From a phage, in sequence record PZ386971.1: a stretch of DNA of 64,000 nucleotides. One strand, written 5' to 3'. The notes beneath the pieces are model-generated. The model had not been told where the DNA came from and did not search any database. It saw nothing but the letters and a program-made list of their open reading frames with translations. Made by a program: the position numbers and the translations under genes. Shown here piece by piece: positions 6,802-52,133 of the stretch; position 1 is the first letter of the stretch; every line of letters starts with the position of its first letter.

Positions 6802-6882
6802 AATAAATATCCTCACTTTGGAGTATTTTAACCCCCATTTATTTCAAAACTAAATATTTACACTATTCAGAGGAGAACGACC

Positions 6883-9177: not shown

Positions 9178-9214
9178 TTCGACTAAGTATAGAAAACATT
9201 TAGAGGATATGAAC

Positions 9215-9385: not shown

Positions 9386-9397
9386 GAGGAATGTATC

Positions 9398-9703: not shown

Positions 9704-9710
9704 GGAGCGA

Positions 9711-10379: not shown

Positions 10380-10388
10380 ATTCAGCCT

Positions 10389-10398
10389 CACTAAATAC
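10389..10398 (+). promoter_or_regulatory. Late-promoter-like motif CACTAAATAC
   Basis: Variant of T4 TATAAATA placed 27 nt upstream of the scaffold ATG; same motif upstream of several other late genes. Confidence 0.35.
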
Positions 10399-10424
10399 TG
10401 AAAATCGTTCAGAAGGAAACAATC

Positions 10425-17932: not shown

Positions 17933-18679
17933 ATGGCATCTCTCCAGGATCTACGCAAGCTGAATGACTTCGAAAACCGCCATTACACATTCCAGCAGTA
18001 CGAACTTCCTTACAAGGAACTGGAGTGTGTGACGACGGAAAACGGTCGTCATTATGTATCGCCGACTGGCGTCAAGCTGACATCCGTCACGACTATGCTG
18101 GGGCGTACTGGTGATCATGAATGGCTTGAGGCTTGGAGGAAGAAGCTAGGTGCAGAGGCCGCCGACCTTGAGACCATGCGTTGCGCTGACCGAGGGGAGA
18201 AGCTGCACCTTGCATGCGAACTGTATTTGAAGAACCGCCCAATGAAAGAAGTGTTGGAAGCGGCTGGCGAATACATGTTCATGTTCAAGCAGCTGTTCCC
18301 CTATCTGAACAAGATGACAAAGATCTATGCTCAGGAGATCCCATTATACAGCGAGGTGCTTGGTCTTGCAGGTCGAGTGGACCTTATTGGGATTTATGAG
18401 GGTAAACCTGCTATCATCGACTTCAAGACATCGAACATCATGAAGACGCGGGGAATGATCGAGGACTACAGTATCCAGCTGTGCTTATATTCGGTCATGT
18501 TCCAGCAGATGTTCGGTGTCAAGATCACCCGCCTCATCAATGTGATCGCCAACGAGTCTTCCCCTCTACCAACCGTCATTGAGTTCAACCGTGATGACAT
18601 CCTGACAAAGATGTTTGAGCGTGTTCGTCTGTACCATCGCATGGATAAAGAACAGAACGGAGTCTGGCCAGATCACTAA
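17933..18679 (+). CDS. PD-(D/E)XK nuclease, Cas4/RecB-like
   Basis: 248 aa; GRVDLIGIYEGKPAIIDFKTS (D...D/ExK) followed by QLCLY (QxxxY motif). Confidence 0.6.
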   Translation: MASLQDLRKLNDFENRHYTFQQYELPYKELECVTTENGRHYVSPTGVKLTSVTTMLGRTGDHEWLEAWRKKLGAEAADLETMRCADRGEKLHLACELYLKNRPMKEVLEAAGEYMFMFKQLFPYLNKMTKIYAQEIPLYSEVLGLAGRVDLIGIYEGKPAIIDFKTSNIMKTRGMIEDYSIQLCLYSVMFQQMFGVKITRLINVIANESSPLPTVIEFNRDDILTKMFERVRLYHRMDKEQNGVWPDH

Positions 18680-18683
18680 ATAC
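18674..18683 (+). promoter_or_regulatory. Late-promoter-like motif CACTAAATAC upstream of uvsW
   Basis: Same motif as upstream of the scaffold gene, about 25 nt before ATG 18708. Confidence 0.3.
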
Positions 18684-18707
18684 CCCATAATTCTTGGGAG
18701 ATTTTGT

Positions 18708-24565: not shown

Positions 24566-25789
24566 ATGAAAGATAAACCATATGACATCCCATATTGCGG
24601 TGTCCGTGAAACCAAAATCAAATCAGCCCATCCTATGTTAAGTTCATTCCACCGTCAGCTGGCATATGAATGGATGAGGGATCGTTATGCGATACATGTC
24701 AAGAAGGACGTGCAATGCCTTCCAGCGCCATGGACGGATAATCCGGTATTACGCCAAGTCAAGTTTTGTAACGTGCGGAGAGAGCACGATAGACAGTCTC
24801 GAAATTTGATCAATAATATCATCCTCAATCAGGATCTCACGCTATCTGACAAAATGTTCAACTGTGTATTGTTCCGCATGTACAACATGTGGGAACCTAT
24901 ACAGGCTTTGGGTGGTCCATGGACGATCGAAGAATTCGGAAACATAAATCTTGAATGGTGTCGAAGTGTTCTTCAGGAATTCGAATCTAAAGGTGGCAAA
25001 GTTTTCACCAATGCGTTTAATACAGGCGGTCTGAAACAATGCCTGGCTTTCCCCGAACTAGTTGTCAACCACAAGGAGCAGCGCTTCGGTGGGATGATGG
25101 TGAATCTGATCTGTAAAGACGGTTCAACCCAGAACATGGATTACAAGGAAGCCAAGGCCATCGCTGAAGCAGAGCCGGACTTCTACACCATCGAAGGTTG
25201 GGAACCGTACATGCCAATGCGTGTCATCCGCTCCCTGAAGGCATTCGTCAACAAACACCCTCATTACTTTGATCGCCTCAGGGAATTTAGCCGTCCCGAC
25301 TCTGTTTACCAGGCGATGTATGACGACATTGAGGGGCTTGGACCATTCTTGGCATACCAGATTTGGGTTGATTTTACATACATCGATGAATATCCATTCA
25401 GTGAAAACCACTTCACTATCGCTGGTCCAGGTTGCCGTGCTGGTATCGATCTGTTATTTTTGGACAAGGACGGCATGACGCATGAAGAATGCATATTCTG
25501 GGTTCGTGATCATCAAGATCAATTGTTCGCTCAGTATGGGTATAAACGTAATGAATTTTGGTCGGCAGAAGAACCGGAAGATCGTTGCATGAATGTTATG
25601 CAGCTGGAGAACATGTTCTGTGAACTTCAGAAATATACCCGCTGTGTTGAGGCAGTGATGCGCGGGGAGAAACCTCGAGGAAAGGTGGGGTATGACGGGA
25701 ATGGTAGTGCGTATAAGCAACGTTGTGATGAAGTCGTGCTCAAACGTGGTTCCGTCAATTTGCTGGACCGTTTGAAGAAACCTGAATAA
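24566..25789 (+). CDS. Hypothetical protein (407 aa), orphan enzyme-like
   Basis: Long clean ORF with RBS; no recognisable P-loop, methyltransferase or ligase motif. Confidence 0.55.
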   Translation: MKDKPYDIPYCGVRETKIKSAHPMLSSFHRQLAYEWMRDRYAIHVKKDVQCLPAPWTDNPVLRQVKFCNVRREHDRQSRNLINNIILNQDLTLSDKMFNCVLFRMYNMWEPIQALGGPWTIEEFGNINLEWCRSVLQEFESKGGKVFTNAFNTGGLKQCLAFPELVVNHKEQRFGGMMVNLICKDGSTQNMDYKEAKAIAEAEPDFYTIEGWEPYMPMRVIRSLKAFVNKHPHYFDRLREFSRPDSVYQAMYDDIEGLGPFLAYQIWVDFTYIDEYPFSENHFTIAGPGCRAGIDLLFLDKDGMTHEECIFWVRDHQDQLFAQYGYKRNEFWSAEEPEDRCMNVMQLENMFCELQKYTRCVEAVMRGEKPRGKVGYDGNGSAYKQRCDEVVLKRGSVNLLDRLKKPE

Positions 25790-25903: not shown

Positions 25904-27922
25904 ATGTCAGATTTTAAGCCCTTCGCAGTAGCTGTCAACAATAACGTGCTGGCCATGTCAGCAACTGGTCTGTTCATGACCAACATCGATAAAGATGCTC
26001 TGTGGGATCTGTATCTGTCTTCTTTCCCTGCTGGCACTAACCCGCTTTATCGTGAGCGTACCGAGCACGACTGCACCTGCTGTAAACAATTCATCCGTAA
26101 TATCGGCGGTGTGGTCACCATCGACTCCGACCTGAACGTGATCTCTATCTGGGATAACATTCAGCTGGGTAACGAATACGACGTTGTCGCTGCGGCGCTG
26201 TCAGCATATGTTAAGCAGCACGCAATCGTCGACGTGTACTTCAACGACACCAAGAAAGTTGGTGTTGAGTCGAATCACGAAATGAAAGACGGTATTGCCC
26301 GCACCTACAACCACTTCCACACCGACCTGCTGGGTAGCTATGTTCTGCGGGCAGATACCATCGCTTCTAAGAAGGGCGAAATCCGCCAGGCGATTGAAGT
26401 GTTTGAGCGCGGTCTGCGCGAACTGTCTCTGGAATCGGCTGAAATCGTTCTGGAATTGATTGACCAGAATTCTCTGTATCGCGGTGAAGAGCACAAAGCG
26501 GCAGTGCAGGCGTTCGTGGTGAACAAGACCCTGTACGAACAAACTGCAGAAGAGAAACGCGCTCTGTGGGCTTGGCGCACTGGCTACCGTGCAAACGGTC
26601 ATACCCCTCACGGCATTCGTAATACCGTGATTGGCTCTCTGCTGGTAGACCTCAATGAAGGCCGGGATTTGGAAACCGCCGTGAAGTCCTTTGAAGCCAA
26701 AGTCGCCCCGACGAACTACAAGCGCCCAACCGCGCTGGTCACGAAGTCGATGATTGAAAACGCGCAGAAAGAAGTCGAAGCGCTGGGTCTGACTGATTCA
26801 CTGGGTCGCCGTTATGCCGTGTATGACGATCTGACCATCAACAACGTTCTGTTCGCCGATCTGGCAGCTCAGAAGAAGATGGACCCGTTTGCTCAGCTGG
26901 CGTCTGAAGTGAAGACTCCGACCAAGTCCCTGGACAAGGTTGAAGAGATCACGATCGACGACTTCCTGGCCAACGTGTTGCCAAAGGCGCATTCCCTGGA
27001 AGTGCTGGTCGAAAACTCTCACATTGGCAACCTGATGTCCCTGATCGCTCCGGCTACCGCAGGCGCTCCTAACCTGTTCAAATGGAACAACGGTTTCAGC
27101 TGGTCATACAACGGTGAAGTGGCCGACTCCATCAAAGAGCGCGTGAAGACAGCAGGCGGCAACGTTGACAGCTTCCTCCGGGTGTCACTGGCTTGGCATA
27201 ACAACGACGACCTGGATCTGAGCATGAACGATCCTCTTCACAACCACGTATATTTTCGCAACCGTCGTTCGACAACTGGCGCAACTCTGGACATCGACAT
27301 GAACGGTATGGACGGCATTGACCCAAATCGCCGTCCGGTGGAGAACATCTTCTTCAGCGATGAACGCAAGCTACGTGACGGGAATTATGAGTTCTATGTC
27401 ACCAACTTCAACAAGCGTGAAACCTGTGACGTTGGTTTCGAAATCGAAGTCGAATACAAAGGCCAGACCAAGCGCTTCTCACACCCTGGCCTGGGTAACA
27501 AAGATCGCACGTTGGCTGTTGTGGTTCAGGTTCGCGCTGGTCAGGTGGTTGACATCAGTTCTACCCTGAAAGACGACGCTCGCTCTCAGGAAATCTGGGG
27601 CATCAAGACCTCCGTCTTCCAGAAGGTACAGCTGGTTCTGAACTCACCAAACCATTGGGACGGCGAGCAGACGGGCAACAAGCACGTGTTCTTCATCCTG
27701 GAAGGTTGTGCTAACCCTGTCGGCACCCGTGGTTTCTATAACGAATATCTGAAGCCGGAACTTGATAAACACCGCAAGGTTTTTGAAATGTTAGGTGGTA
27801 AGATTAAAGTACAGCCAAGCAATGAGCAGCTGTCCGGTCTGGGCTTCTCTACCACCCAACGCAACCACGTGTTCGTGAAGGTGAGCGGTTCGTTCAACCG
27901 CACTGTGAAAGTTGTGTTCTAA
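25904..27922 (+). CDS. Hypothetical large protein (672 aa)
   Basis: Clean ORF preceded by AGGAAGATTACATCATG; Cys cluster HDCTCCKQF near N-terminus; no recognisable catalytic motif. Confidence 0.6.
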   Translation: MSDFKPFAVAVNNNVLAMSATGLFMTNIDKDALWDLYLSSFPAGTNPLYRERTEHDCTCCKQFIRNIGGVVTIDSDLNVISIWDNIQLGNEYDVVAAALSAYVKQHAIVDVYFNDTKKVGVESNHEMKDGIARTYNHFHTDLLGSYVLRADTIASKKGEIRQAIEVFERGLRELSLESAEIVLELIDQNSLYRGEEHKAAVQAFVVNKTLYEQTAEEKRALWAWRTGYRANGHTPHGIRNTVIGSLLVDLNEGRDLETAVKSFEAKVAPTNYKRPTALVTKSMIENAQKEVEALGLTDSLGRRYAVYDDLTINNVLFADLAAQKKMDPFAQLASEVKTPTKSLDKVEEITIDDFLANVLPKAHSLEVLVENSHIGNLMSLIAPATAGAPNLFKWNNGFSWSYNGEVADSIKERVKTAGGNVDSFLRVSLAWHNNDDLDLSMNDPLHNHVYFRNRRSTTGATLDIDMNGMDGIDPNRRPVENIFFSDERKLRDGNYEFYVTNFNKRETCDVGFEIEVEYKGQTKRFSHPGLGNKDRTLAVVVQVRAGQVVDISSTLKDDARSQEIWGIKTSVFQKVQLVLNSPNHWDGEQTGNKHVFFILEGCANPVGTRGFYNEYLKPELDKHRKVFEMLGGKIKVQPSNEQLSGLGFSTTQRNHVFVKVSGSFNRTVKVVF

Positions 27923-28781: not shown

Positions 28782-29654
28782 ATGACAACTCGCACTGGCA
28801 TCAAACTCACTCCTGAAGTCCTGAAGTCACATATCGCTGAGGTGATTTACGAAGACCGCGAAGTCGGCGGTCACCGGGCTATCACTTGTCATTTCAAGAT
28901 GGATAACGGCTTCGTCGTTCACGGCACCAAGCCCAGCACATCCATAGACCCGGCCAACTTCGATGAAGCCCTGGGCAAAGAGATTTCCTACAATAACACC
29001 TTCGACCAGCTGTGGCAGCTGGAGGCGTACCGGGCGCTTGTTGAACAAGATCTGTTGGCCAAAGCCACGGAAACGGCAGAGATCCGGATCGATCAATACG
29101 CTGTTGAACGTAGCGCCCTCTGTCCGGCCTATCACCTCGGCTTCAATGTGATGATTCAGGAAGTGATGTTCAGAGCGGAAAATGGCGAGCGCTTCTTGGC
29201 GTCTTTCATTTGTGGGCCGGATGACATGGAACTTGTTGTTGAATCTCACAACGCCAAATCTCGTAAGGCTGTTAGTGATTTCCTGCGCGCCAACTCCAAA
29301 CTCGATCTCACTTGTTCGCCATTGGTTCTGCGCATCGCCAAGATTTGTCATGAAGCCAACCGCGCATACTGCAAGTCTATTGGTGACGACTCTCAACTGC
29401 CTTGGGAACAATCTCCGGCCTGGCAGCGTGAGAGCGCTTGCAAAGGTGTTATCTTCCATCTCACTGGTGATCGTAAGCCCAGCGAATCGCATGAGAGATG
29501 GATGGCGGAGAAGGAGTCTGAGGGATGGGTATATGGCCCAGTCAAAGACCCTCAGACCAAGCAACACCCTTGCATAGTTCCGTATGGAGAACTCCCGGTA
29601 CAACAACGCTCCAAAGATTATATTTTCAAATCCATTGTAGACTCCTTTAAATAA
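28782..29654 (+). CDS. Gp49-like N-terminal domain fused to a C-terminal RyR-domain
   Basis: N-terminus HRAITCHFKMDNGFVVHGT...DPANFDEALGKEISYNNTFDQLWQLEAYRAL; C-terminus HERWMAEKESEGWVYGPVKDPQTKQHPCIVPYGELP resembles the RyR repeat. Confidence 0.5.
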   Translation: MTTRTGIKLTPEVLKSHIAEVIYEDREVGGHRAITCHFKMDNGFVVHGTKPSTSIDPANFDEALGKEISYNNTFDQLWQLEAYRALVEQDLLAKATETAEIRIDQYAVERSALCPAYHLGFNVMIQEVMFRAENGERFLASFICGPDDMELVVESHNAKSRKAVSDFLRANSKLDLTCSPLVLRIAKICHEANRAYCKSIGDDSQLPWEQSPAWQRESACKGVIFHLTGDRKPSESHERWMAEKESEGWVYGPVKDPQTKQHPCIVPYGELPVQQRSKDYIFKSIVDSFK

Positions 29655-29690
29655 GCTCTGAATAATATTTCAACCTGTCAATAATATAAT

Positions 29691-29719
29691 GCCCGGTTAT
29701 ATTCAATCGGGCATTTTTA
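29691..29719 (+). terminator. Terminator-like hairpin after the RyR-domain gene
   Basis: gcccg-(12 nt loop)-cgggc followed by ATTTTTA. Confidence 0.4.
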
Positions 29720-29728
29720 TTATATTAA

Positions 29729-29759
29729 TTGGCATCAATACCGCCTGTCGTAATATAAT
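29729..29759 (+). promoter_or_regulatory. Sigma70-like promoter (TTGGCA ... TATAAT) upstream of the vWA gene
   Basis: TTGGCA at 29729 and TAATATAAT at about 29751-29759 (16-19 bp spacer depending on hexamer choice). Confidence 0.4.
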
Positions 29760-29804
29760 AGTCCCATGTTAAAATAGTTAGGAAATATAACTCACGAGAG
29801 CCTG

Positions 29805-29981
29805 ATGACCGACAACAAATTAAAACGTGTCGGACTTGATTGTCTTGACAATTCATTCCGCCCCAGTGATGTTCTGGTCGCCCAAATGGAAAACAACCGG
29901 GATTTCATTGAAACTATGCTGGAGAACGCCGACGCGAACTCCAAACACTCCAAAGCCCAAAAAGGTCAAAACGATGATTGA
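29805..29981 (+). CDS. Possible small ORF (58 aa) overlapping the vWA start
   Basis: Not in the track (under 60 aa); ATG with GAGAG upstream; reads MTDNKLKRVGLDCLDNSFRP...; hand-indexed coordinates. Confidence 0.25.
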   Translation: MTDNKLKRVGLDCLDNSFRPSDVLVAQMENNRDFIETMLENADANSKHSKAQKGQNDD

Positions 29982-32175
29982 ATCATTAACATTTAAGAAT
30001 GCGGTTGCGACCGTTGCGCCGTCTAACCATGTAATCGTTGTGGATATCTCCGGTTCCATGTATCGTTCACTTCCAGAAGTCCGTAAGCATCTGAAGGAGA
30101 ACCTGCCTTCCCTGGTGAAACCCGAAGATACTGTGAGCATCCTTTACTTTTCATCTCGCGGTGATTTCGGAACGGTATTTGCCGGACGCCAGATCGGTGT
30201 CGCATCTGACCTGAGCGAGCTGAATAAGCTGATCGATCGCTTCCTGCAACCGTCCGGATGTACTGGCTTTGTTGAGCCGTTGAAACTGGCGATGGACACT
30301 GCTCGTAGCCTGAAGAAGCCTGGCTATGTCAACAACCTGGCGTTCATGACTGACGGGTATGACAACTGCTGGCGTACCAACGAAATCTTACTGGTTGCTG
30401 AGACCCTGCCATTTGCTTTCGATAACATTACTTTCATCGAATACGGCTGGCACTGTAACCGCGAACTGCTGGCGCAGATGGCCGAACGCTCCGGTGCGAC
30501 CCACGTGTTTGCCGAAGGTCAGACCGAATACCAGACCGAACTAGAAAACGTGCTGAAGTCATCAGTGCCGAAGGTGAAAGTTGATGTCCCAGTCATCTAC
30601 ACCCATGCCATCTACGTCGAAAACGGTGTGGCAACAGTACTGGCGGTGCAGGACGATGACTCTCACCCGGTCGGCTATGTGAGCATCCCTGAGAGCGTCA
30701 CCAAGCTGTGGGTTGTAAACCCTAACATGATCGACCAGCTTGATGCGCTGGCGGACATCCAGGCGGCATACGTGCTGGCGTTCTACGGCGTACACATCAT
30801 GGACGCAGACCTGGTATGGGCTGCGCTGAAGAAGACGGGCGACGTTCGCTTCATCAAACAGTACAGCAACTGCTTTACCAAGCAGGACTACTCCAACATC
30901 AAGAACGATCTGGTACAGGCGATTGTTGACGACCAGCTGCGCGGCGTTGACGGTATTGACTATGACCTGGTTCCGGCTGAAGATGCGACGACCGTCGTTG
31001 ACGTGCTGACGTATCTGGCTGAAGCTGGCGTGTCTGTTGCCACCAAACATCCTATGTTCTCCTACAAGAGCATTGGTCGCGGTACTGTGCAGAAAGCGGA
31101 CGATACCGAAGACAAACTGGCAGAACAGATCGCGAATGCTCAGTCCAAAGAAGAGCGTAAAGCCCTGGCTCTCAAGCTGGCTGAGCACGAAGAATGGACG
31201 CCGTCGTTTGAACCTGCCAACGATCTGGGCGTTATCTCAATCAGCGATCTGGTCTACAACTCTGAGCGCCCGAACATCAGTGTGCGCACTATTCAGCATG
31301 GTACTGTGACTGTCCCTGAGTTCGCACAGAAGAAGTTTGGTCTGCCTGAAGAACTGGATACTTTCCAGTGGCGCAACTACACCATCGTCAAAGATGGTAT
31401 CATCAACGTGAAGACCCTGCCGTTCAAGGCTGATATCGAAGTTGTACAGAAGCTGATCGAAATGGGCGTCCACGTGTTTGGTGGACCGGAAGTGTTTGTC
31501 CTGAACCTGGAAAGCGTACCGCTGGTCAACCGCGCCATGGTCAAGAACATCAGTGCTGCTCAGTTCTTTGCGGATAATGTCCGTTTGGAAGCCCTGAAAG
31601 GCAAGCAGAAGGTGCTGAAGTTCTATCGAGACGCCCTGGTTGGTAAAGGTAACGCCAAAGGCCTGGCAGTACAGTACGGCGCTGAGGCGGCCGAGTTCCT
31701 GTCCTCCTACGGCATCCGCGATTACGGCTTCTCACCGAAGACTGAGACCAAAGAGTCTACCGACTTCTACATGAGCCGGGAGCTGAACGTGAAGATCGCT
31801 GGCGCTTCATCTCTACCGTCTATCGCAGCGGTACAGAAGAAGATTGCCGAGAACAAGAAACTCAATGCTGGTGACTTGTTCATCGCCAATGCTCTGAAAG
31901 AGTACGAAGCATTCGTGAAGTCTCCTATGATCACTGCCGTGCCTGAAGCCTTACAGAAACAGCTGATCGAAAACTGGATCGACGCTGCTGCCAAGGCGAC
32001 CATCACCGAAGTCCGTGCCCTGAACAAGACACTGTCTAAAGTGGTGTATGGTATCGTTGCTGGCCACGGCTGGTTCACCGACCTCGACCTGGAAGAGTCC
32101 ACCATGGAAGTTGAAGTGGATGGCGTGAAGTACAAGGTCACTGCCGAACTGACAGAGAAAGAAATCAAAATCTAA
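29974..32175 (+). CDS. von Willebrand factor A (vWA) domain protein, 733 aa
   Basis: VIVVDISGSM (MIDAS DxSxS), later FMTDGYDN; N-terminal 49 aa of the track ORF are low-complexity and likely untranslated, start ATG 29974 with AAAGG SD. Confidence 0.7.
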   Translation: MIESLTFKNAVATVAPSNHVIVVDISGSMYRSLPEVRKHLKENLPSLVKPEDTVSILYFSSRGDFGTVFAGRQIGVASDLSELNKLIDRFLQPSGCTGFVEPLKLAMDTARSLKKPGYVNNLAFMTDGYDNCWRTNEILLVAETLPFAFDNITFIEYGWHCNRELLAQMAERSGATHVFAEGQTEYQTELENVLKSSVPKVKVDVPVIYTHAIYVENGVATVLAVQDDDSHPVGYVSIPESVTKLWVVNPNMIDQLDALADIQAAYVLAFYGVHIMDADLVWAALKKTGDVRFIKQYSNCFTKQDYSNIKNDLVQAIVDDQLRGVDGIDYDLVPAEDATTVVDVLTYLAEAGVSVATKHPMFSYKSIGRGTVQKADDTEDKLAEQIANAQSKEERKALALKLAEHEEWTPSFEPANDLGVISISDLVYNSERPNISVRTIQHGTVTVPEFAQKKFGLPEELDTFQWRNYTIVKDGIINVKTLPFKADIEVVQKLIEMGVHVFGGPEVFVLNLESVPLVNRAMVKNISAAQFFADNVRLEALKGKQKVLKFYRDALVGKGNAKGLAVQYGAEAAEFLSSYGIRDYGFSPKTETKESTDFYMSRELNVKIAGASSLPSIAAVQKKIAENKKLNAGDLFIANALKEYEAFVKSPMITAVPEALQKQLIENWIDAAAKATITEVRALNKTLSKVVYGIVAGHGWFTDLDLEESTMEVEVDGVKYKVTAELTEKEIKI

Positions 32176-32217: not shown

Positions 32218-32541
32218 ATGAGCAGTAAACCAACATATGTTGAAGTCATGCGTCATCTGGCTCAGTACGCCACTGACAATCTGAACTTGGATCTGTGGCG
32301 TGACGATGACAAGCGCAAATTGCTGGACGACGTGGCATCTCAGAACGAGGACGCCCTAGACAAGCTGGCTGGCCTCCGCACCAAGAAAGACCTCGGCGGT
32401 GATGAACTGGACGCTATCGAAATTGTAATGGACCTCGAAGAAGAGTTTCAGGTCGAAATCGACGATGGTTGGCTGGGCAGTAAAGGTGATGACCCGACCA
32501 TGGGTGAACTCGCTGAACTCGTGGTTGCCCTGCGCAAATAA
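32218..32541 (+). CDS. Acyl carrier protein homolog with Ser-to-Glu at the phosphopantetheine site
   Basis: DLGGDELDAIEIVMDLEEEFQVEIDD aligns with E. coli ACP [26 protein letters not shown]; the conserved DSL Ser is Glu (DEL). Confidence 0.7.
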   Translation: MSSKPTYVEVMRHLAQYATDNLNLDLWRDDDKRKLLDDVASQNEDALDKLAGLRTKKDLGGDELDAIEIVMDLEEEFQVEIDDGWLGSKGDDPTMGELAELVVALRK

Positions 32542-38427: not shown

Positions 38428-38517
38428 TTCCGCTTTATTCAATAAAATTTGTTAGTTAAACTGTAGTCCTCTTGTAGTGAACATGAAAGTAAACATTAAC
38501 CCAACGGAGAAATCCAG

Positions 38518-38796
38518 ATGAATCGTACTGAATTTGTTGCCCACATTGCTTCGACCCAGAACATCACCAAAGGCGAAGCGGAGAAAGTAGTGGCATCCTT
38601 TATCAACGGTGTTAAGACTGCAGTTGCTGCAGGCGCATCTGTACAGCTGGTCGGCTTCGGTGCGTTCGAAGTGAAACACCAAGAAGCGCGTGAAGGCCGC
38701 AACCCTCTGGACGGCCAGACCATTCAGATCGCGGCGAAAAACGTTGTGAAATTCAAAGTGGGCGAAGGTCTGAAGAACGCTGCCAACGGCAAGTAA
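38518..38796 (+). CDS. HU/IHF-family histone-like DNA-binding protein
   Basis: 92 aa; GFGAFEVKHQEAREGRNPLDGQTIQIAAKNVVKFKVGEGLK matches the HU signature arm. Confidence 0.85.
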   Translation: MNRTEFVAHIASTQNITKGEAEKVVASFINGVKTAVAAGASVQLVGFGAFEVKHQEAREGRNPLDGQTIQIAAKNVVKFKVGEGLKNAANGK

Positions 38797-38848
38797 TTCT
38801 ATCTGACGCGCGGCCAGGCTCTGCAATACAGGGCATGGCAAAGAGAAA

Positions 38849-38875
38849 GCCGGAGCATTGTACTCCGGCTTTTTC
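38849..38875 (+). terminator. Rho-independent terminator after the HU gene
   Basis: gccggagCATTGTActccggc then TTTTT. Confidence 0.6.
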
Positions 38876-38924
38876 GTTCTTGGGGATCGGGTAAACTATA
38901 GGCGAATCCCATAGGAGGAAGAAA

Positions 38925-40643
38925 GTGACAGCATTCAACCAATATACCAAGGCGCTTGACGGCGTCGGACCAGTCAGCATAGACCGCATCAAGTCTCTTG
39001 CCACTGAGTTCTTCCCGTATGACACCGCCAACCCCGGCCAGATGGAATGCATCGTTGAAGCCATTGATGCCCTTGTGAATAAGAAATTCAAACACGTGAT
39101 CATCGAGGCTCCGACTGGTGTAGGTAAATCCCTCATCGGCACTACCATCCATAATGTGCTTCGCCATTTGGTTCTTGAGCACAACCCGTATGGTCAGTTC
39201 CGCACGTCTATCACGACGCCGACCAAAGGTTTACAGGATCAGTATGCAGCAGAGAAAGCCGTGGCGATAGACATCCTGAAGGGCAAGAAGAACTACCGTT
39301 GCCACATCAGTCCCGACCTATACTACAACGCCATTCAGTGCCGTATGGCATGCCGTGATGGCCACTGTAGTAAGAATCGTTGCCCATATGTTCAGGCGCG
39401 TCGACAGTGGACCGACGTCTCCTCCCTGCGCTGCACCAACGCCGCCATGATGGTGGAGATGTGTACGACGATTTGTATGAAGCCGGAAAACCGTGCCGAT
39501 ATGCTGATCCTTGACGAGTGTCATAAGATGCCCTCTACGCTCCTAGAGCATACTATCATGGAATACAACATAAAGGCTGTGGAAGGGTTGCTTACGATCC
39601 CCGAGGGAGTGCCTATCGTGGAGACCATCAAGGATATCATCATCCGCACAGAGAACTATGAATTGGGCAAGCTGTATTCCCTGTCTGGTGAGATGCATGC
39701 GATATTTGATGAACTACACGGCAAGGTTGAAGCCCTGTTGGAAACTCTTGAAGAACTGGTAGAGGATGAGCGCCTGACTGAAGCCCAGGTGATGAAGCTG
39801 TCTGATATTATTGATAATCTTCACAACCTCAGTGACTACTGCGGTATCATGGGGCAGACCAACGCCAGCACTTTCATCGTACAGGAGAAGGACAAGGGTA
39901 TGATTCAGTTCAAGCCTGTCATCGCCTCTGATGTATCCCAGTTCGGTCTGTTCCGCAAGGGTGACTACCACGTTCACATGTCGGCGACCATCTGCGGGAT
40001 TGACTCGTACGCCCGGTCACTGGGTATCCGCGAGGGTGAGTACCACAAGATACAGATCGGCAACCCTATCCCGATTGAGAACCGGAAAGTCAACTACATG
40101 CCCATCATGAAGATGACAGCGAACATGGGTGACTACGAGATGAAGAAGCTGGCTGAATACGTGGATGAAATTATCGCGTTCCACCCTGGGCAGTCTGGCA
40201 TCATTCACACAGTCAGTTATGACCGCGCCCTGGCTCTACAAAAGTTCAGTAAGTACCGGAATATGATTCACGTTCCTCGTACTCGTAAGGCTCTGATGGA
40301 CATCATGGAAAACGCGTTCAGGACGAAGACGCCTTGTGTCATCGCCAGTCCGGCCATGGAAGAGGGGTATGACTTCAAAGGCGATTATAGTCGATTTCAG
40401 ATCTTGATCAAAGTGCCATACGATTACCTTGGTGATCCTCTGGTGGCCCACGTCAACAGTGTGGACCCATCGGCGTACTTCAGGATGGCGGTACTGCGTA
40501 TCGTTCAGATGTGTGGGCGTTCGGTCAGGGGCGTGAATGACTGGGCTGCGACGTACATCCTTGATTCTTCTTTTGAATCACTGATGATGCGCAACCCAGA
40601 GTTCTTCCCCGCTTGGTTCACTGATGCCGTGTTTGAGGTTTAG
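38925..40643 (+). CDS. DinG/XPD-like Fe-S SF2 helicase
   Basis: 572 aa; APTGVGKS Walker A; four-Cys cluster CHISPDLYYNAIQCRMACRDGHCSKNRC; DECH box. Confidence 0.75.
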   Translation: MTAFNQYTKALDGVGPVSIDRIKSLATEFFPYDTANPGQMECIVEAIDALVNKKFKHVIIEAPTGVGKSLIGTTIHNVLRHLVLEHNPYGQFRTSITTPTKGLQDQYAAEKAVAIDILKGKKNYRCHISPDLYYNAIQCRMACRDGHCSKNRCPYVQARRQWTDVSSLRCTNAAMMVEMCTTICMKPENRADMLILDECHKMPSTLLEHTIMEYNIKAVEGLLTIPEGVPIVETIKDIIIRTENYELGKLYSLSGEMHAIFDELHGKVEALLETLEELVEDERLTEAQVMKLSDIIDNLHNLSDYCGIMGQTNASTFIVQEKDKGMIQFKPVIASDVSQFGLFRKGDYHVHMSATICGIDSYARSLGIREGEYHKIQIGNPIPIENRKVNYMPIMKMTANMGDYEMKKLAEYVDEIIAFHPGQSGIIHTVSYDRALALQKFSKYRNMIHVPRTRKALMDIMENAFRTKTPCVIASPAMEEGYDFKGDYSRFQILIKVPYDYLGDPLVAHVNSVDPSAYFRMAVLRIVQMCGRSVRGVNDWAATYILDSSFESLMMRNPEFFPAWFTDAVFEV

Positions 40644-41407
40644 TAACCCGCAACGAAGGACAGATGGCACTTGACATTCGGTTCCAACGACGTCACAGAA
40701 ACCGTCATATTGTCCGTATCTTGGCTGAAGTCAATGGTGGCGAGAGGTTTGGTCTGAATATGGTTGTAAACACTGTAGATCAGATCCTCGCCACGATACC
40801 CTACCTTCCCGTCGGTGTCTTGCCAATGACCCAGTGTTTCATCGTAGACATGCACTCTGAACTCGATCATATGGAAGAGTGCCTTGGGGATGTCCTTGAG
40901 TACGCTGGTGCCAACCACGGGAATCTCTATGCTGGAATCATTGGAGTTCCCTTCATAGACCGAAGCCCATGCAAAGGTAGGATCACCCCCAGCAACAGGG
41001 GTTCGCTTCCAGTATTGGAATTCTGGGTTGCCTGAAGCGTTCTTCTGAAGTAGAATGACCTCACCACCTTTGAAGTTCGAGGTATCGATGTCGCCTCGCT
41101 GAAGTTCATCTGCTGGAGATCCAATAAATTTCCAACCTTCGCGATCCAGTAAAGACTTATAATAGTCGGTGAACACGTTGCTGTCTTCTGCATCGTTGAT
41201 GGCATCTTTGAGACCTTGGCCTGTCACCATCTCGTTGAGCTTCAACCACATGTTCTTGACAGCAGACGCTGCTGCGACTTGTCCAGCAGTCCCACCTGCA
41301 GCATAATCATAGATGATATCTTCTGACTTGATAGCATCATAGATAGAGAGGAGCAATTGCTCAATCTGCGGGGCGGTGAGACTGAAACGATATGCGCGGG
41401 GTGCCAT
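40640..41407 (-). CDS. Hypothetical protein (255 aa)
   Basis: Minus-strand ORF from ATG with GAGGAA SD; the track's upstream extension (52 aa) looks like junk. Confidence 0.5.
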   Translation of the reverse strand: MAPRAYRFSLTAPQIEQLLLSIYDAIKSEDIIYDYAAGGTAGQVAAASAVKNMWLKLNEMVTGQGLKDAINDAEDSNVFTDYYKSLLDREGWKFIGSPADELQRGDIDTSNFKGGEVILLQKNASGNPEFQYWKRTPVAGGDPTFAWASVYEGNSNDSSIEIPVVGTSVLKDIPKALFHMIEFRVHVYDETLGHWQDTDGKVGYRGEDLIYSVYNHIQTKPLATIDFSQDTDNMTVSVTSLEPNVKCHLSFVAGY

Positions 41408-41452: not shown

Positions 41453-41980
41453 ATGATAGAAATTTATTCTGACGGGGGTTCTAACCCGAAGACCAACCAG
41501 GCCGCAGGCTGGGCATTTGTCATCAGGCCAATAACGGGTATGCAATGGAAGGTGTTCTTCGGTCATCTACCTCCCCCGTCCACTAACAATATCGCCGAGT
41601 TGTTGGGTGTGACCAACGCATTGAAGCTACTGTGGGCATTCTCAGGAAAGGGTGAGCGCAGAATACCAAAGGCAACAATTTGGTCTGACAGCCAATATGC
41701 CATCAAGAGTGTCACCGAATGGCGAGCGAAGTGGGAGTATCAGGGTTTCCCAGAAAAGAACGTTGAACTCATCAAAGATCTGTTCAGAATCTATGATCTC
41801 GTTTGTTCAATTTGTGATGTTGAACTAAAATGGGTTAAGGGTCATGCGGGGCACGAAGGCAACGAACTTGCCGATGACTGGGCCACAGCAGCCAAAAACG
41901 ACAGCAACTTCCTGATTGAGAATGACAAGATCTCAGTGAAGAAGGTTGTTGGATCTTTTGATGAATTTATCGGTATCTGA
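41453..41980 (+). CDS. rnhA: Ribonuclease HI
   Basis: YSDGGS...GWAFVI, TNNIAELLGV, WSDSQYAI, VKGHAGHEGNELADDWA match the RNase H type 1 catalytic motifs. Confidence 0.85.
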   Translation: MIEIYSDGGSNPKTNQAAGWAFVIRPITGMQWKVFFGHLPPPSTNNIAELLGVTNALKLLWAFSGKGERRIPKATIWSDSQYAIKSVTEWRAKWEYQGFPEKNVELIKDLFRIYDLVCSICDVELKWVKGHAGHEGNELADDWATAAKNDSNFLIENDKISVKKVVGSFDEFIGI

Positions 41981-41991
41981 GGGCTTTCATA

Positions 41992-42783
41992 ATGGGAATG
42001 AACTTCGTGGACAGAGGGGAGAATGTCGTCAAATATTTCACGGACGAAGACAACGAGCGTGTCATTAGTATCCTTCGTGATTGGATCCCCGCCCGCAAGA
42101 AAGCACTTGCTGAGGGCACCAGGCTTCCAAAGATCCCCAACTATGTTGCTCTGCAGGTCCAGCGCATCATCACCAAGATGAGTACCCGCTACAACTATCG
42201 CGACTATCCCTTCCGTGAAGACATGGTCTCTGAAGCAATAGTCAACATCCTGCGCTACCTCCACACCTTTGACGTCGAACACATTGGAAAGAAAGGGAAG
42301 ATCAACTTCTTCTCTTGGGTGACCATGTGCGCTGATCGATCATTCGCTCGTAAACTGAATATCGAAGAAGAACACACGTACATCAAATTGCGCTCATTTG
42401 AAGAGGCGGGTGGGTTCGCAGGCCTGGCAGACGATCCCGACTTCCAACAAGAGATCTTTGTTGACGCGACAGGGATTGGTATGGACTTCCGTGAGCGTAT
42501 CGGTAACTTTGAGAACAAAAAGGACGCTCAAAGGCAGAAGGAGCGAGAGAAGGTGGAGGCGGCTCGTCTCGCAGAATCGAATAAAAAGATTGCGAAAGGC
42601 ATACTTCAATACATGGCGCAGGCTAAGAATACGGTAACAGCGCAGGCCGAAGACAATTCAGATCAGGACTTTGGCAAAACCCAATTCAATCTGGAAGATG
42701 ATATCTGTGCGATGGAACCAGATTGGGAAGCCCTCAAACAAAGATTAGAAGAACGGGAGAAAAAGAATAATGGCGATTGCTAA
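41992..42783 (+). CDS. 55: Late sigma factor (T4 gp55-like)
   Basis: NFFSWVTMCADRSFARKLNIEEEH resembles T4 gp55 [24 protein letters not shown]; lies upstream of gp47/gp46 as in T4. Confidence 0.6.
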   Translation: MGMNFVDRGENVVKYFTDEDNERVISILRDWIPARKKALAEGTRLPKIPNYVALQVQRIITKMSTRYNYRDYPFREDMVSEAIVNILRYLHTFDVEHIGKKGKINFFSWVTMCADRSFARKLNIEEEHTYIKLRSFEEAGGFAGLADDPDFQQEIFVDATGIGMDFRERIGNFENKKDAQRQKEREKVEAARLAESNKKIAKGILQYMAQAKNTVTAQAEDNSDQDFGKTQFNLEDDICAMEPDWEALKQRLEEREKKNNGDC

Positions 42784-49148: not shown

Positions 49149-52133
49149 ATGTCAAAGCCAAGTTTCCTCCAGTTCATGCAGGAAAGAGATCAGTTGGACG
49201 AAGCGTTCAACTCCGCTCCGTATGAGCTGACCATGGGTAAGAAGAACGCAGGCGATGTGTTCTTCACCTTCGTCGACGAAGATGATAAGGAATACCGCAT
49301 TCAGTTCTATACTCCTCAGGGACTGGGCAAGAGCGTTCGTCAGGTTTTCATCGGCCAGAAGCGCGGCTCCGTCTATCCTGACGCCATCGCTCGCTTCAAG
49401 AACCCAATGCGCGTTATTGCTTCCATGATCGAAGCGACCAAACAATTCATGGCGACTCCTCTGGGCAAAACTATCGATGGCTATGCTGTCAACTTCTCGA
49501 AGAAAGCGCTGGATCGCGGTATGACCCTGATTCCTAAGATCATCCGCCAGTCCGGTCTGAAGCAGAAACTGAATGTCATGGACCTGACCTACGCGCCTGT
49601 CCCTGACCGTGGTTATGTGTGGCTAGTTCGTAAGGGCAAAGATCCGGCTCAGGTATTCGACGGTCCGAAGATGCAGGGTATCACCTGGGATGATCCAGAC
49701 AAGGTCGGTGACGTTCCGGTTCAGAACAATACTCCGGATGTGGGTGTGTCATCTTCTGTTGATAATTCCAACGGATGGAAATTAACTTCAAACGGGGATC
49801 AGCCCATGTTGATATGGGCTGGTAAGGAGAGAGGCCGCACGAATACGGCAAATATCGCTCCCCACTACAATGAGCCGGGCGTGTATGTTGGCGCATACAT
49901 GAATGAGAAACCTGTGCGTGGGCAAAGTGCTGATTTCATTGCTCGTCAGTTGAAATTACCACAAGTCCCTATCAGTATCCTGAATGATTTCACCACGGCG
50001 TCCACAAAATTTTGGAAAGGTTCTCAACAGAAATCTGCGCCTGTTGTGCCGGCAGGTTCGGACAGAAATAACCCAGCCAACATTATCGGTTCTGGAACTG
50101 CTGTTATTGATGCCAAACGGCTTGGTGCTCAGGAAGTAAACGTGGAACGATTCAAAAACGGCGTTCGCATGCGTTCTCGAAACGGTGACGTCGACATCAG
50201 TATTTCTGACCCAGACTTTTCAAATGCAGCAAGTGCGGCTGATGCTGCCACAGCCTCTGTTGTGGTCAAGAACGGGCGTTACGAAGGTGCCATCAATTCA
50301 AAGCGCAAGATTGCCCGCACCTCGAACGAGCAGGGTACTGAATGGGATATTATCGGCGTCAACGGGGAAATCCTTGTCTCTATCAAGTTGAACAAAGTGT
50401 CTAAATCCACATCAGATTCGACCGAGGGTGCAACCAGTGTTGATCAATTACGTGACAGCGGTTTCATCGCTCGTGTTCTGGGTATCATTGATACCAACGT
50501 TGGGCTGGACACTTCTATTCTTCCTGGTGAAAACATCCGTCGCGTGGGCGCTGGTCGTTACACGACGACAGGCGGGTTGGTTATCGTTGTCAACTTCACA
50601 AACGTCCTCGCTGGTTTCGTTCAATACTCAGTTTTCAGCGAAATTGCTGAAGAGGAGAACGTGGCCAAAGGTAGCGCCCGTGACGTCGCCAAGGCGGTAA
50701 TTGCGTCCATCTTTGAGGTTGCTAAGACCCAGTACACTGGCAAATGGGAAATTAGCGCAGTGCCAACAAGCGCTCCATATCCTATCAAAGCCATTCGCCG
50801 TTCTCGGGGCTGGGGTTATGTGGAAACCGCAAACTGGACTCTGACAGTGTCCGACGCTGTCCTGAATCGTGTGAAGCCAGGGAACACTGCTCTGCTGGAA
50901 CTCATCAAAGAGCCTCCGCGTGGCAAGCACCTGCTGGAAATCATCCCAGAGAAGGGCGACAAGACCCTGATGCTGAAAGATCGTATTACCGGGGCCATCT
51001 ATGGTTCTATCGACCTGAATGCCCAAGGCGCTGATCTGGTCAACTCTGGAACCCTGAAGATACCAAGCAACGCCATGGTGTTTGGTGAGACTGTCAACGG
51101 TATGTCCATTCGGTGGGATGTCAATTTCCCCGAAACGGGAAAATACGCCGGTACTTCTATGATAACCAACGTGACCTATTACTACGACAAAGGTAAAGTT
51201 GCATTCACCCCAATTGTCTCTCAGAAAGGGCGTACCCTGAACAATCCGAAGACATATGAACTTCCTTTAAACAAAGATATGGTCCAGAGTGTGATTGATG
51301 AGATTTCATCAAAAATGGTATATCTTTCCAGAAACCTCCAACAGTTGAAAAGTCAGTCATACAACCCAAACCAGGTGTTCTTGAACGATATAACCATCAC
51401 GGATAAAGGTGAAGTGATTTGGAATGATTACAACTTGTCTGACGGCAAAGTTACACAAATTATGCTGTCCATGATAAGCGCAGAAAATAAACGCCTGGAG
51501 AAAGTAGCAAACACGCCGGATATCAATATCACATTGCCCAAGAAACAAGCTGAAGTGGTAGAATTTATAAACCGGATGATCGACATCGATCTCACCCCTT
51601 ATGTGAGAACCCCCAAAAAACGTGATGTGGTATTATTTGACTCTTCTGAATTGTCGATAAACCAACTCAACAACATAGAACGCCTGGGAAGAGAAACAGG
51701 AAAATGGTCTCTTCAGCCAAACGGTGGTATGGGTCATGCACTACTTCTGAAAAGCACGTCGCACAATCCGAAGGACGACCTTGCGGCATACGCCGACTCC
51801 ATTCGCGACAACGCACCAAAAGGTCGCGACCTGGATTGGCAGATCTATGCAAGCCGTGATGGTCAGACTCTGAACGTGGACTGGGATATCACCTTCCGCC
51901 GCAACACAACTGAAGGGGCATATCGCGAGTTCAAAGCTCAGATTGACCGCGCCAACCAGTACCTGCAGACACTGTACCGGGATGCGAAGTCCAAGGGTTA
52001 CAACCCGACTGAACCAAACCTGATGACTCTGGCTCGCGCCCAGCAGTCTGACCAGTGGTCACAAGACAACGGGGAAAGCGCATACAGCGAGTACGAGCAG
52101 TCCCTGGGTGGCAACATGCAGATTAAGATCTGA
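49149..52133 (+). CDS. Large hypothetical protein (994 aa)
   Basis: Long uninterrupted ORF with GGAGA SD; Asn/Gly/Ser/Thr-rich; no polymerase or ATPase motifs found. Confidence 0.6.
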   Translation: MSKPSFLQFMQERDQLDEAFNSAPYELTMGKKNAGDVFFTFVDEDDKEYRIQFYTPQGLGKSVRQVFIGQKRGSVYPDAIARFKNPMRVIASMIEATKQFMATPLGKTIDGYAVNFSKKALDRGMTLIPKIIRQSGLKQKLNVMDLTYAPVPDRGYVWLVRKGKDPAQVFDGPKMQGITWDDPDKVGDVPVQNNTPDVGVSSSVDNSNGWKLTSNGDQPMLIWAGKERGRTNTANIAPHYNEPGVYVGAYMNEKPVRGQSADFIARQLKLPQVPISILNDFTTASTKFWKGSQQKSAPVVPAGSDRNNPANIIGSGTAVIDAKRLGAQEVNVERFKNGVRMRSRNGDVDISISDPDFSNAASAADAATASVVVKNGRYEGAINSKRKIARTSNEQGTEWDIIGVNGEILVSIKLNKVSKSTSDSTEGATSVDQLRDSGFIARVLGIIDTNVGLDTSILPGENIRRVGAGRYTTTGGLVIVVNFTNVLAGFVQYSVFSEIAEEENVAKGSARDVAKAVIASIFEVAKTQYTGKWEISAVPTSAPYPIKAIRRSRGWGYVETANWTLTVSDAVLNRVKPGNTALLELIKEPPRGKHLLEIIPEKGDKTLMLKDRITGAIYGSIDLNAQGADLVNSGTLKIPSNAMVFGETVNGMSIRWDVNFPETGKYAGTSMITNVTYYYDKGKVAFTPIVSQKGRTLNNPKTYELPLNKDMVQSVIDEISSKMVYLSRNLQQLKSQSYNPNQVFLNDITITDKGEVIWNDYNLSDGKVTQIMLSMISAENKRLEKVANTPDINITLPKKQAEVVEFINRMIDIDLTPYVRTPKKRDVVLFDSSELSINQLNNIERLGRETGKWSLQPNGGMGHALLLKSTSHNPKDDLAAYADSIRDNAPKGRDLDWQIYASRDGQTLNVDWDITFRRNTTEGAYREFKAQIDRANQYLQTLYRDAKSKGYNPTEPNLMTLARAQQSDQWSQDNGESAYSEYEQSLGGNMQIKI

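Follow-up and report, generated by a model that had tools for sequence, protein, structure and literature searches.

The closest described relatives of the helicase reported here are the DinG proteins of Escherichia coli (6FWR/6FWS) and Finegoldia magna (9KQH), which gave its best sequence and fold matches and have in common with it the SF2 5'-3' helicase architecture of HD1, an insert at the Fe-S position, an Arch insert and HD2. Identity is about 16%, and the DinG proteins are longer (716-748 aa compared with 572 aa) than the phage protein, which, unlike them, is phage-encoded and not the product of an SOS gene. The DinG cysteines are spread over what we take to be about 86 residues (C120-C205), as against 28 in the phage helicase; C194, C199 and C205 of DinG are visible in the alignment of the two.

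The archaeal XPD proteins of S. acidocaldarius (3CRV), T. acidophilum (2VSF/4A15) and S. tokodaii (2VL7) are 13-18% identical to the phage helicase, which has a shorter Fe-S domain and lacks the TFIIH/NER partner context. It also differs from them in having no match at E<=0.01 to Pfam DEAD_2 (PF06733), the N-terminal model of the family, owing to a divergent and shortened Fe-S/HD1 region; a precomputed match to this model was found in one homologue only (P0062). E. coli YoaA is an Fe-S XPD/Rad3-like helicase that binds the chi subunit of the clamp loader and acts as a replisome-linked accessory helicase. The location of the phage gene near clamp and clamp-loader genes recalls this link, but a HolC-like partner was not identified for the phage helicase.

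Two further systems are relevant. T4 Dda, an SF1B 5'-3' accessory helicase, belongs to an unrelated superfamily without sequence similarity to the phage protein, yet the niche proposed below is the same, that of a non-replicative 5'-3' helicase in T4-type replication and recombination, and the two may be functionally equivalent. CasDinG of type IV-A CRISPR systems (8E2W, 7XF0) belongs to the same fold family and is 12% identical to the phage helicase in its solved form; it presumably carries no cluster.

Phages commonly carry HU homologues. Bacterial HU proteins (e.g., 3RHI, 1HUU) have a 90-residue fold with GFGxF and R-N-P arm motifs that are also present in the HU protein encoded next to the helicase. 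SPO1 TF1 (1EXE/1WTU) comes, like the latter, from a phage with hmU-derived bases in its DNA, and has, we assume, a C-terminal extension for which the phage HU protein has no counterpart.

The phage and its two genes

The window, i.e., the whole 64-kb stretch of DNA analysed, belongs to an Agtrevirus-like (ViI-like) phage of the Ackermannviridae and not to T4, although T4 core genes are also present in it. It is 95% identical in nucleotide sequence to Escherichia phages PC3/PH4 and collinear in gene order with Shigella phage Ag3. An earlier note on this DNA had set the HU and helicase genes against T4, which was said to use Dda and UvsW and to have no Fe-S helicase. This frame was misplaced, since both genes are expected in an Agtrevirus-like phage. 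UvsW is itself encoded in the window (18615-20216), and Dda is absent from the genome of the related phage Vi01.

Across the Ackermannviridae the HU and helicase genes are conserved and a regular part of the annotation, with more than 160 genomes annotating both, so that their occurrence in the window is no surprise. They are two ordinary, previously annotated phage genes about which little is new, and as HU and Fe-S proteins of phages were known before, they upset no established idea. It is probable that they are two independent, conserved genes of the early/replication module. This reading builds on gene structure, family membership, cysteine conservation, predicted fold, synteny and the lack of Dda in Vi01, and would extend from these to metal identity, polarity, substrates and biological role. 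A promoter scan returned nothing above background near either gene, and the literature search found no characterised phage XPD/DinG Fe-S helicase, no study of an Ackermannviridae helicase or HU protein, and no biochemical data for members of the phage helicase clade.

The HU protein

Both ORFs described in the earlier note were present, and its assignment of the first to the HU fold proved correct. The HU gene (38518..38796, + strand) starts with ATG and encodes 92 aa with a pI of 9.7; a ribosome-binding site, GGAGA, was read from the sequence at 38506..38510 (+ strand), and in phage Marshall one is annotated at the matching position. The protein covers Pfam Bac_DNA_binding (PF00216) over profile positions 1-90 of 90 (E 5.7e-29, 100.6 bits, cutoff 22.4), matches phrog_379 at 4e-35 and PDB HU chains at 2e-19 (best 2.4e-19), and is 96.7% identical to Ag3 gp113. 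Reading the sequence confirmed all of the residues G46-F-G-A-F50, R58, R61-N62-P63 and K86, and the full-length domain together with the R-N-P motif of the beta-arm places the protein in the HU/IHF family.

Within that family it falls under all NCBIfam equivalog cutoffs for HU-alpha, HU-beta, IHF-alpha and IHF-beta orthologues (scores/cutoffs 69.6/157, 67.3/162, 71.4/111 and 65.7/115, respectively). In a search limited by its word index, the closest non-phage relatives were HU proteins of Bacteroidota (around 52% identity) and not enterobacterial ones, on which ground recent capture of a host HU gene was rejected. As to a particular likeness to TF1, TF1 (1EXE) ranked below ordinary HU (4.2e-11 compared with 2.4e-19). 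The phage HU protein most likely dimerises and bends phage DNA through minor-groove beta-arms, with P63 as the intercalating wedge, and is probably an architectural factor in replication, recombination, transcription or packaging.

The region between the two genes

The HU and helicase genes are separated by an intrinsic terminator-like hairpin with a 13-bp stem and a T-run (38843..38881, + strand). Its folding energy is -21.6 kcal/mol (z -3.4), and none of 200 shuffled sequences was equally stable. A consensus terminator scan missed this hairpin, which was found by direct folding; the annotation of phage Marshall has a terminator at the homologous site. The HU gene would be transcribed separately, its transcript ending at the hairpin.

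Throughout the enterobacterial Ackermannviridae the two genes are adjacent on one strand with a gap of about 130 nt, an arrangement that could suggest a single functional unit, either an operon or a complex, with HU loading or targeting the helicase. We regard this as highly improbable given the stable hairpin in between, the separate ribosome-binding site of each gene, and the relatives in Vibrio, Aeromonas, Acinetobacter, Delftia and metagenomic phages, in which the helicase occurs without HU in the flanks examined (by annotation and the HU Pfam model). The operon was rejected on account of the terminator and the loss of adjacency outside the enterobacterial Ackermannviridae.

Family and fold of the helicase

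The helicase gene (38925..40643, + strand) has a GTG start and encodes a protein of 572 aa and 64.8 kDa. An AGGAGG ribosome-binding site was read from the sequence 6 nt upstream of the GTG (38913..38918, + strand), and relatives annotate an identical 1719-nt CDS. The protein is an SF2 helicase of the XPD/Rad3/DinG family. Motifs Q (Q39), I, Ia, II (DExH), III, V and VI are all present and invariant or nearly so. On the + strand, motif I (Walker A, APTGVGKS, aa 62-69) lies at 39108..39131 with P63, G65, G67 and K68 invariant, and motif Ia (TPTKGLQDQ, aa 98-106), which aligns with the TANVALQDQ segment of DinG, at 39216..39242 with L103, Q104 and Q106 invariant. Motif II (Walker B) is the DECH box noted earlier, confirmed at residues 197-200 (39513..39524, + strand); D197, E198 and H200 are invariant, while position 199 has Cys in 110 of the 119 close homologues and either Cys or Ala in the distant representatives. 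Motif III (SAT, aa 353-355; 39981..39989, + strand) is conserved in homologue alignments, and the HD2 motifs V (EEGYDFKGD) and VI (QMCGRSVRG) at 40356..40532 (+ strand) contain the invariant residues G481, D483, Q528, G531, R532 and R535.

Between motifs II and III of HD1, where the family carries its Arch domain, there is an Arch-like helical insertion (about aa 216-340; 39570..39944, + strand), for which the AF2 secondary structure gives helices at 217-241, 255-279 and 286-311 and a beta hairpin at 316-331. The AF2 model (pLDDT 91.6, pTM 0.89) aligns over its full length to DinG and XPD. With this model Foldseek returned only XPD/DinG/CasDinG/Hna-type proteins at ranks 1-44 (best 6fws, 6e-28, TMq 0.66-0.68), and the family profile matched E. 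coli DinG 6fwr (2e-19), F. magna DinG (4e-16) and TaXPD (3e-13). The earlier call of a DinG/XPD-type helicase is thus borne out by both sequence and predicted fold, which align to this family and nothing else; no alignment to a non-helicase family was seen. The domain search for the DinG family that had been proposed gave a match to Helicase_C_2 (PF13307, E 3.8e-12, 47.0 bits, cutoff 25.3), with DEAD and ResIII also matching, and DinG (NF008729, 1.8e-18) was the best NCBIfam match, followed by YoaA (NF053712, 2.4e-15).

The scores are nevertheless far under the equivalog cutoffs (66.3 bits versus 598 for DinG and 56.3 versus 680 for YoaA), and the substrates of DinG and YoaA are therefore not simply transferable to the phage helicase. 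As judged from their sequences, the phage helicases form a distinct clade, phrog_2488, rather than DinG or YoaA orthologues. The phage-borne XPD/DinG clade is large: at E<=1e-30 it numbers 1,122 cluster representatives, and it occurs in 498 phage genomes.

The strongest library match outside PHROGs was the PADLOC model typeIV_DinG ('CAS-IV-A; associated', PDLC01439), full-length at 2.8e-51, which might point to a component of a conflict system, CasDinG-like in a type IV CRISPR system or acting in counter-defence, instead of a replication or repair enzyme. Such a role appears extremely improbable, since neither a CRISPR array nor cas genes were found within the window, the canonical Csf4 models match very weakly (TIGR03117 11.6 bits, cutoff 400; Csf4_0_IVA 8.8e-7), DinG and XPD structures outrank CasDinG, and the gene is embedded among those of the replication module. 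Membership of CRISPR type IV (Csf4/CasDinG) was rejected on the Csf4 scores, the lack of an array or cas genes and the replication-gene neighbours.

The four-cysteine segment

A compact segment predicted to bind metal (aa 126-153; 39300..39383, + strand) has the sequence CHISPDLYYNAIQCRMACRDGHCSKNRC. The earlier note quoted it as a four-cysteine cluster, and four of its cysteines did prove invariant, but the segment holds five. C126, C139, C148 and C153 are present in all 119 homologues (35-99% identity), while C143 is variable (Cys in 42/119). These four are the only invariant ones among the 14 cysteines of the protein, C357 being Cys in 118/119; as the mean column identity of the 119-homologue alignment is 40%, such conservation is far beyond chance. 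It extends to 134 more distant representatives (28-48% identity), all of which have C126 and C153; 129 of them contain at least four cysteines inside the segment bounded by the first and last of the four.

The cysteines follow the spacing C-x12-C-x8-C-x4-C over 28 residues (family median 28, range 22-61) and lie between motif Ia and the DECH box, and C148 and C153 (C-x4-C-P-Y, a CP[YF] motif) align with C199 and C205 of E. coli DinG. The Fe-S domain of XPD occupies the equivalent position between motifs Ia and II (PMC3378879). By comparison with these proteins, the four invariant cysteines are very probably the ligands of an iron-sulfur cluster, most likely [4Fe-4S]. The alternative of a structural zinc site (a Cys4 knuckle), which would leave the protein an XPD-like helicase but make it independent of host Fe-S assembly, derives some support from the compact, zinc-ribbon-like arrangement of the cysteines within 28 residues and from the five of the 134 representatives with only three. 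It is considered unlikely, as the location between motifs Ia and II and the C-x4/5-CP[YF] element match the DinG cluster ligands C199 and C205, and every characterised XPD-family member with four cysteines at this place binds [4Fe-4S] (PMC3378879).

For an iron-sulfur cluster, maturation would be carried out by the host Isc/Suf machinery. Both the binding of Fe-S and the tie to host Fe-S assembly, which the earlier note had put forward, are what we infer from family precedent. Within that family CasDinG functions without an Fe-S cluster, and S. aureus DinG reportedly does so too. The link of a phage to host Fe-S metabolism would in any case be nothing special, since T4 encodes the Fe-S enzyme NrdG and gpL of lambda also binds Fe-S. 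The span of 28 residues is, to our knowledge, much below that of the characterised XPD and DinG Fe-S domains, and a site binding [4Fe-4S] would rank with the most compact Fe-S domains that we know of in the XPD/DinG family.

The importance of a large phage-borne clade keeping so unusually compact a four-cysteine site is modest. If [4Fe-4S] is bound, the 65-kDa protein would offer a tractable model for the cluster domain as a wedge, and replication or repair of therapeutic ViI-like phages of Salmonella, E. coli and Klebsiella would depend on host Isc/Suf status, iron and oxidative stress.

Gene neighbourhood and possible role

Beside the helicase gene there is a conserved, convergent ORF of 255 aa (40643..41407, - strand; phrog_3833, 8e-160) that is 96% identical to Ag3 orf124; some records label it a structural protein. 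It is followed by an RNase HI-type ribonuclease (41453..41980, + strand; Pfam RNase_H PF00075, 7e-25), a gp55-like late sigma (41992-42783) and then gp47/gp46. The order clamp/clamp-loader, helicase, RNase HI, gp55, gp47 and gp46 was observed in the window, Ag3, Vi01, Vibrio phage K444 and two metagenomic relatives (L016/L017).

Family membership and these neighbours suggest that the protein is most likely a 5'-3' accessory helicase for replication, recombination or repair. Two RecA-like motor domains carry all the helicase motifs, and motor domain 1 bears both the minimal four-cysteine domain and the helical Arch insertion. If the protein works like XPD and DinG, ssDNA would be threaded 5'-3' through the pore that these domains form, with the Fe-S domain as the strand-separating wedge. 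The helicase most likely assists the T4-like replication, recombination and repair machinery of the phage, and likely tasks are the clearing of R-loops, D-loops, flaps and protein blocks beside RNase HI and the gp46/47 nuclease.

The Vi01 genome contains gp41, gp59 and UvsW-like genes. Searching T4 Dda by tblastn against the whole Vi01 genome and the window (to E<=10) gave only noise (E>=0.47), and a Dda homologue in either was rejected. The argument that the helicase substitutes for Dda is weak because the absence was checked in one complete genome, that of Vi01, and many T4-related phages reportedly have neither Dda nor such an XPD-like helicase.

Hypermodified DNA

The DNA of this phage is 5-hmdU-derived and hypermodified; a 5-hmdU DNA kinase is encoded at 24566-25789 (PF18723, 2.4e-83), and 5-NeOmdU occurs in the DNA of ViI-type phages (PMC5889632). 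A helicase dedicated to thymidine hypermodification, opening 5-hmdU DNA or scanning it on behalf of the kinase and transferases, or adapted to translocation on bulky 5-NeOmdU DNA, might be suggested by the presence of both helicase and kinase genes in all Ackermannviridae, by the kinase 13 kb upstream of the helicase in the window, and by Delftia phage PhiW-14, in which a single small ORF separates the homologue (39% identity) from the 5-hmdU DNA kinase downstream. The wider distribution makes this very unlikely. Rhizobium phages, haloviruses, phage G and Lak phages have the helicase, and none of them appeared in the kinase search, while Pseudomonas and Microbacterium phages have the kinase but do not figure among the organisms that the helicase search listed. 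In Vibrio phages some 100 kb separate the two genes: the helicase of K444/D504 is located at about 21-24 kb and the kinase of D504 at around 120 kb. Nor are the genes adjacent in the neighbourhoods L013 and L015-L017.

The biochemistry points the same way, five ViI proteins having reconstituted 5-NeOmdU in vitro without a helicase (PMC5889632), and the thymidine-hypermodification papers make no mention of one. The link to hmU was rejected as the main explanation because co-occurrence tracks lineage and, among the neighbourhoods sampled, adjacency was found in PhiW-14 only.

A broader proposal is that phrog_2488 is an XPD-type branch with a minimal Fe-S domain that replaces Dda as 5'-3' accessory helicase in the Ackermannviridae and PhiW-14-like phages and is adapted to threading DNA with bulky cationic 5-substituted uracils, on which DinG and YoaA, as lesion-sensing host helicases, might stall, the adjacent HU protein being TF1-like and selective for modified DNA. 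This is quite unlikely in our estimation.

Family assignment of the helicase

The helicase gene (38925-40643, plus strand) has a GTG start 6 bases after AGGAGG, and the same CDS is annotated in relatives. Its 572-aa ORF and DECH box (residues 197-200) are both as the earlier note described them. The domain search for the DinG family proposed there returned Helicase_C_2 (3.8e-12), which is Pfam's model of the XPD/DinG-family C-terminal domain, together with DEAD and ResIII; DEAD_2 gave no match in the Pfam search. The top NCBIfam models were DinG (1.8e-18), YoaA (2.4e-15), dinG_rel and rad3, all far below orthologue cutoffs, and PHROGs assigned the protein to phrog_2488 'DNA helicase' (1e-259). 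Against the PDB, the family profile matched DinG 6FWR (2e-19), F. magna DinG (4e-16) and T. acidophilum XPD (3e-13), as well as yeast and human XPD and FANCJ (1e-10 to 1e-12).

The AlphaFold2 model, built from 85 sequences, was confident (pLDDT 91.6, pTM 0.89), and its Foldseek matches in the PDB at ranks 1-39 were DinG (6e-28, TMq 0.66-0.68), XPD, CasDinG and TFIIH-XPD. In the model a helical insertion of ~125 residues between DECH and the SAT motif matches the Arch domain, and motifs Ia and II flank a short insert bearing the cysteines. Every SF2 motif is invariant. Profiles and predicted fold together make the protein a genuine XPD/Rad3/DinG family member, in a phage clade of its own rather than orthologous to DinG, YoaA or CasDinG. 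A CRISPR or defence role is suggested by a full-length match to PADLOC model PDLC01439 ('typeIV_DinG; CAS-IV-A; associated'; 2.8e-51), which by a wide margin outscores both the canonical Csf4 models and the E. coli DinG model, but the Csf4 scores are very weak and the genomic context lends nothing to such a role, which is therefore unsupported.

The conserved cysteines

The Cys-rich string quoted in the earlier note corresponds to residues 126-153 and itself holds five cysteines rather than four, although a cluster of four conserved cysteines does exist. C126, C139, C148 and C153 are Cys in all 119 aligned homologues (35-99% identity), whereas C143 is variable (42/119). Of 1.84 billion cluster representatives searched, 5,596 were relatives at E<=1e-3, 1,122 of them at E<=1e-30. 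Among 134 distant full-length representatives (28-48% identity), the first and last cysteines are kept in every one, the second in 113 and the third in 128 (strict column), and 129 carry at least four cysteines within the C1-C4 segment, whose median length is 28 residues (range 22-61). Loss of the cluster in homologues had been named beforehand as a possible refutation; the cluster is clearly conserved.

C148 and C153-P-Y align with C199 and C205-P-F of E. coli DinG, and the position of DinG C194 is occupied by the variable C143, so the predicted second ligand at the family level is C139. Zinc in place of an Fe-S cluster at these four cysteines is disfavoured by the homology of their position with the XPD/DinG family.

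Distribution

By tblastn the helicase was found in 498 phage records, covering all enterobacterial Ackermannviridae, ~157-kb Vibrio phages, Aeromonas phiA8-29 (Tedavirus) and Acinetobacter SH-Ab 15599 and, further afield, Delftia PhiW-14, Rhizobium phages, Bacillus phage G and Lak phages. Haloviruses HF1 and HF2 also carry it, labelled 'Rad3-related DNA helicase', and many structural relatives from viruses are present in BFVD, among them one named 'DinG Rad3-related DNA helicases'. Among Escherichia phage records, only 32 have this helicase, compared with 713 with a Dda homologue, consistent with its absence from T-even phages. The record of Shigella phage Ag3 already points out resemblances to the HF2 helicase and a phage HU. 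Both genes come from known protein families; they are conserved across a well-studied phage family, where annotations for them already exist. A literature search for characterisation of any phage member or its Fe-S site found none. What is mildly interesting is the predicted compact Fe-S site of this large phage helicase clade, and its biological role.

Identity of the phage

The observation of an HU-like protein and a DinG/XPD-type helicase is confirmed and its interpretation supported, with three corrections: the ligand cysteines, the identity of the phage, which is not T4, and the presence of UvsW. The T4-like framing arose because the window carries T4-core genes: an intein-bearing large terminase, the tail sheath, tail tube, portal and major capsid proteins, then UvsY, UvsW, gp45, gp44/62 and RegA, and also gp55 and gp47/46. 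UvsW, named in the earlier note as a helicase that T4 uses, is encoded here too, and the gene order from UvsW to gp47 is collinear with Ag3. T4 also differs from the window in GC content (~49-50% in the window).

The phage is of Ackermannviridae type. Over 25 kb the closest matches are Escherichia phages PC3 and PH4 (95%), followed by Ag3 (92%; Ackermannviridae, Aglimvirinae, Agtrevirus). The 2.3-kb region shares 98-99% nucleotide identity with Escherichia phage A221, Enterobacter phage fGh-Ecl02 and Salmonella phages Marshall and Maynard; the hosts of its 161 full-length matches are Salmonella, Klebsiella, Dickeya, Escherichia, Shigella and Enterobacter, except for one Yersinia and one Enterococcus record. 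A 5-hmdU DNA kinase gene (24566-25789, plus strand; PF18723, 2.4e-83), labelled merely 'hypothetical protein' in nearly all relatives, is a hallmark of thymidine-hypermodifying ViI-like phages, whose DNA contains 5-NeOmdU (PMC5889632; PMC3184105), and marks this phage as one of that type.

Genomic context and likely function

The helicase lies within a replication/recombination block, ordered gp45, gp44, gp62 ... helicase, small convergent ORF, RNase HI (PF00075), gp55, gp47, gp46, and this order is common to the window, Salmonella phage Vi01, Ag3, Vibrio K444 (46% identity) and two metagenomic relatives (36-40%). In Acinetobacter phage SH-Ab 15599, dexA adjoins the helicase gene. The RNase HI (41453-41980, plus strand) is a true RNase HI, unlike T4 rnh, which is a FEN-type enzyme. 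In the window, Vibrio K444 and the two metagenomic relatives the RNase HI gene follows the helicase at a distance of 1-5 kb. Known DinG substrates are R-loops, D-loops and forks. The complete Vi01 genome encodes gp41, a gp59-type loader, a UvsW-like helicase and the XPD/DinG-type helicase, and no Dda homologue was found there by annotation or by tblastn of T4 Dda (E>=0.47 only).

XPD-family enzymes translocate 5'-3', and the Fe-S domain is required for their unwinding yet dispensable for their ATPase activity (PMC3378879). From the replication-block context, the lack of Dda in Vi01 and this family precedent we infer a 5'-3' accessory helicase that would assist fork progression, repair or replication dependent on recombination, and that may occupy the niche of Dda with RNase HI as partner. 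Role, polarity and metal identity are all predictions. A dedication to thymidine hypermodification might instead be read from PhiW-14 (GQ357915), where a single 120-aa ORF separates the helicase (39% identity) from the kinase downstream of it on the same strand (8001-10982 of the PhiW-14 locus, L012). However, PhiW-14 is the only relative examined in which the two are nearly adjacent; they lie ~100 kb apart in Vibrio phages and are non-adjacent in other relatives, their families differ in overall distribution, and the pathway has been rebuilt without a helicase (PMC5889632).

The HU protein

The HU gene (38518-38796, plus strand; 92 aa) has an ATG start with GGAGA upstream. The canonical HU fold claimed for it holds: Pfam Bac_DNA_binding spans the whole model (5.7e-29), and GFGAF, R58, R61-N62-P63 and K86 are all present (pI 9.7). 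That HU and helicase form one functional unit, as their adjacency might suggest, is contradicted by a hairpin with a 13-bp stem and T-run between them (38843-38881; -21.6 kcal/mol, z -3.4, 0/200 shuffles as stable), at the same place as the annotated terminator of phage Marshall, and by the absence of this adjacency in the relatives examined outside the enterobacterial phages.

HU proteins of enterobacterial Ackermannviridae form a tight clade (at least 72% identity; Serratia phiMAM1, 51%). In a search limited by its word index, the next relatives beyond the phage clade are Bacteroidota HU proteins at ~52% identity, which argues against recent capture from the host. Many other phages have HU homologues, including SPbeta (yonN), SPO1-like phages and BcepMu. 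SPO1 TF1 matched the window's HU more weakly (4e-11) than did ordinary HU (2e-19), and a preference for modified DNA like that of TF1 is conceivable but lacks support. Vi01 has a second, longer 'histone family DNA-binding' gene (167 aa; 6626-7129 of the Vi01 locus, L003, beyond the window), away from the 92-aa HU, and ViI-like phages may have two HU-family genes each.

Other features

The large terminase gene (1-2211, plus strand) has an Intein_splicing match at aa 127-228; at 736 aa its product equals Marshall TerL in length, whose annotated intein runs from Cys110 to Asn268. A 599-aa ORF (5017-6816, minus strand), flanked by the tail sheath and tail tube genes, occupies a low-GC patch (43% vs ~50%). 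It has DUF7487, weak REase_MTES_1575/DUF559 endonuclease matches and a PADLOC 'homing endonuclease' match (2e-6); in Marshall and Vi01 the equivalent site holds a small GIY-YIG homing endonuclease instead, and the ORF looks like a different mobile endonuclease insertion.

The orf152 homologue (28782-29654; N4 gp49-like plus RyR domain) shares just 40% identity with the Ag3 copy, and the nicotinamide phosphoribosyltransferase gene found in Ag3 between orf152 and orf144 is absent from the window (~29651-29974). After a 782-aa VWA-domain protein (29827-32175) comes an acyl carrier protein homologue (32218-32538). No Pfam match was obtained for ORFs of 672 aa (25904-27922, plus strand) and 994 aa (49149-52133, plus strand), nor a PADLOC match for the latter. 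Within the scaffold-protein region, three imperfect 29-nt direct repeats (11064-11194; spacing 48 and 54) encode an acidic stretch rich in Asp, Glu and Lys.
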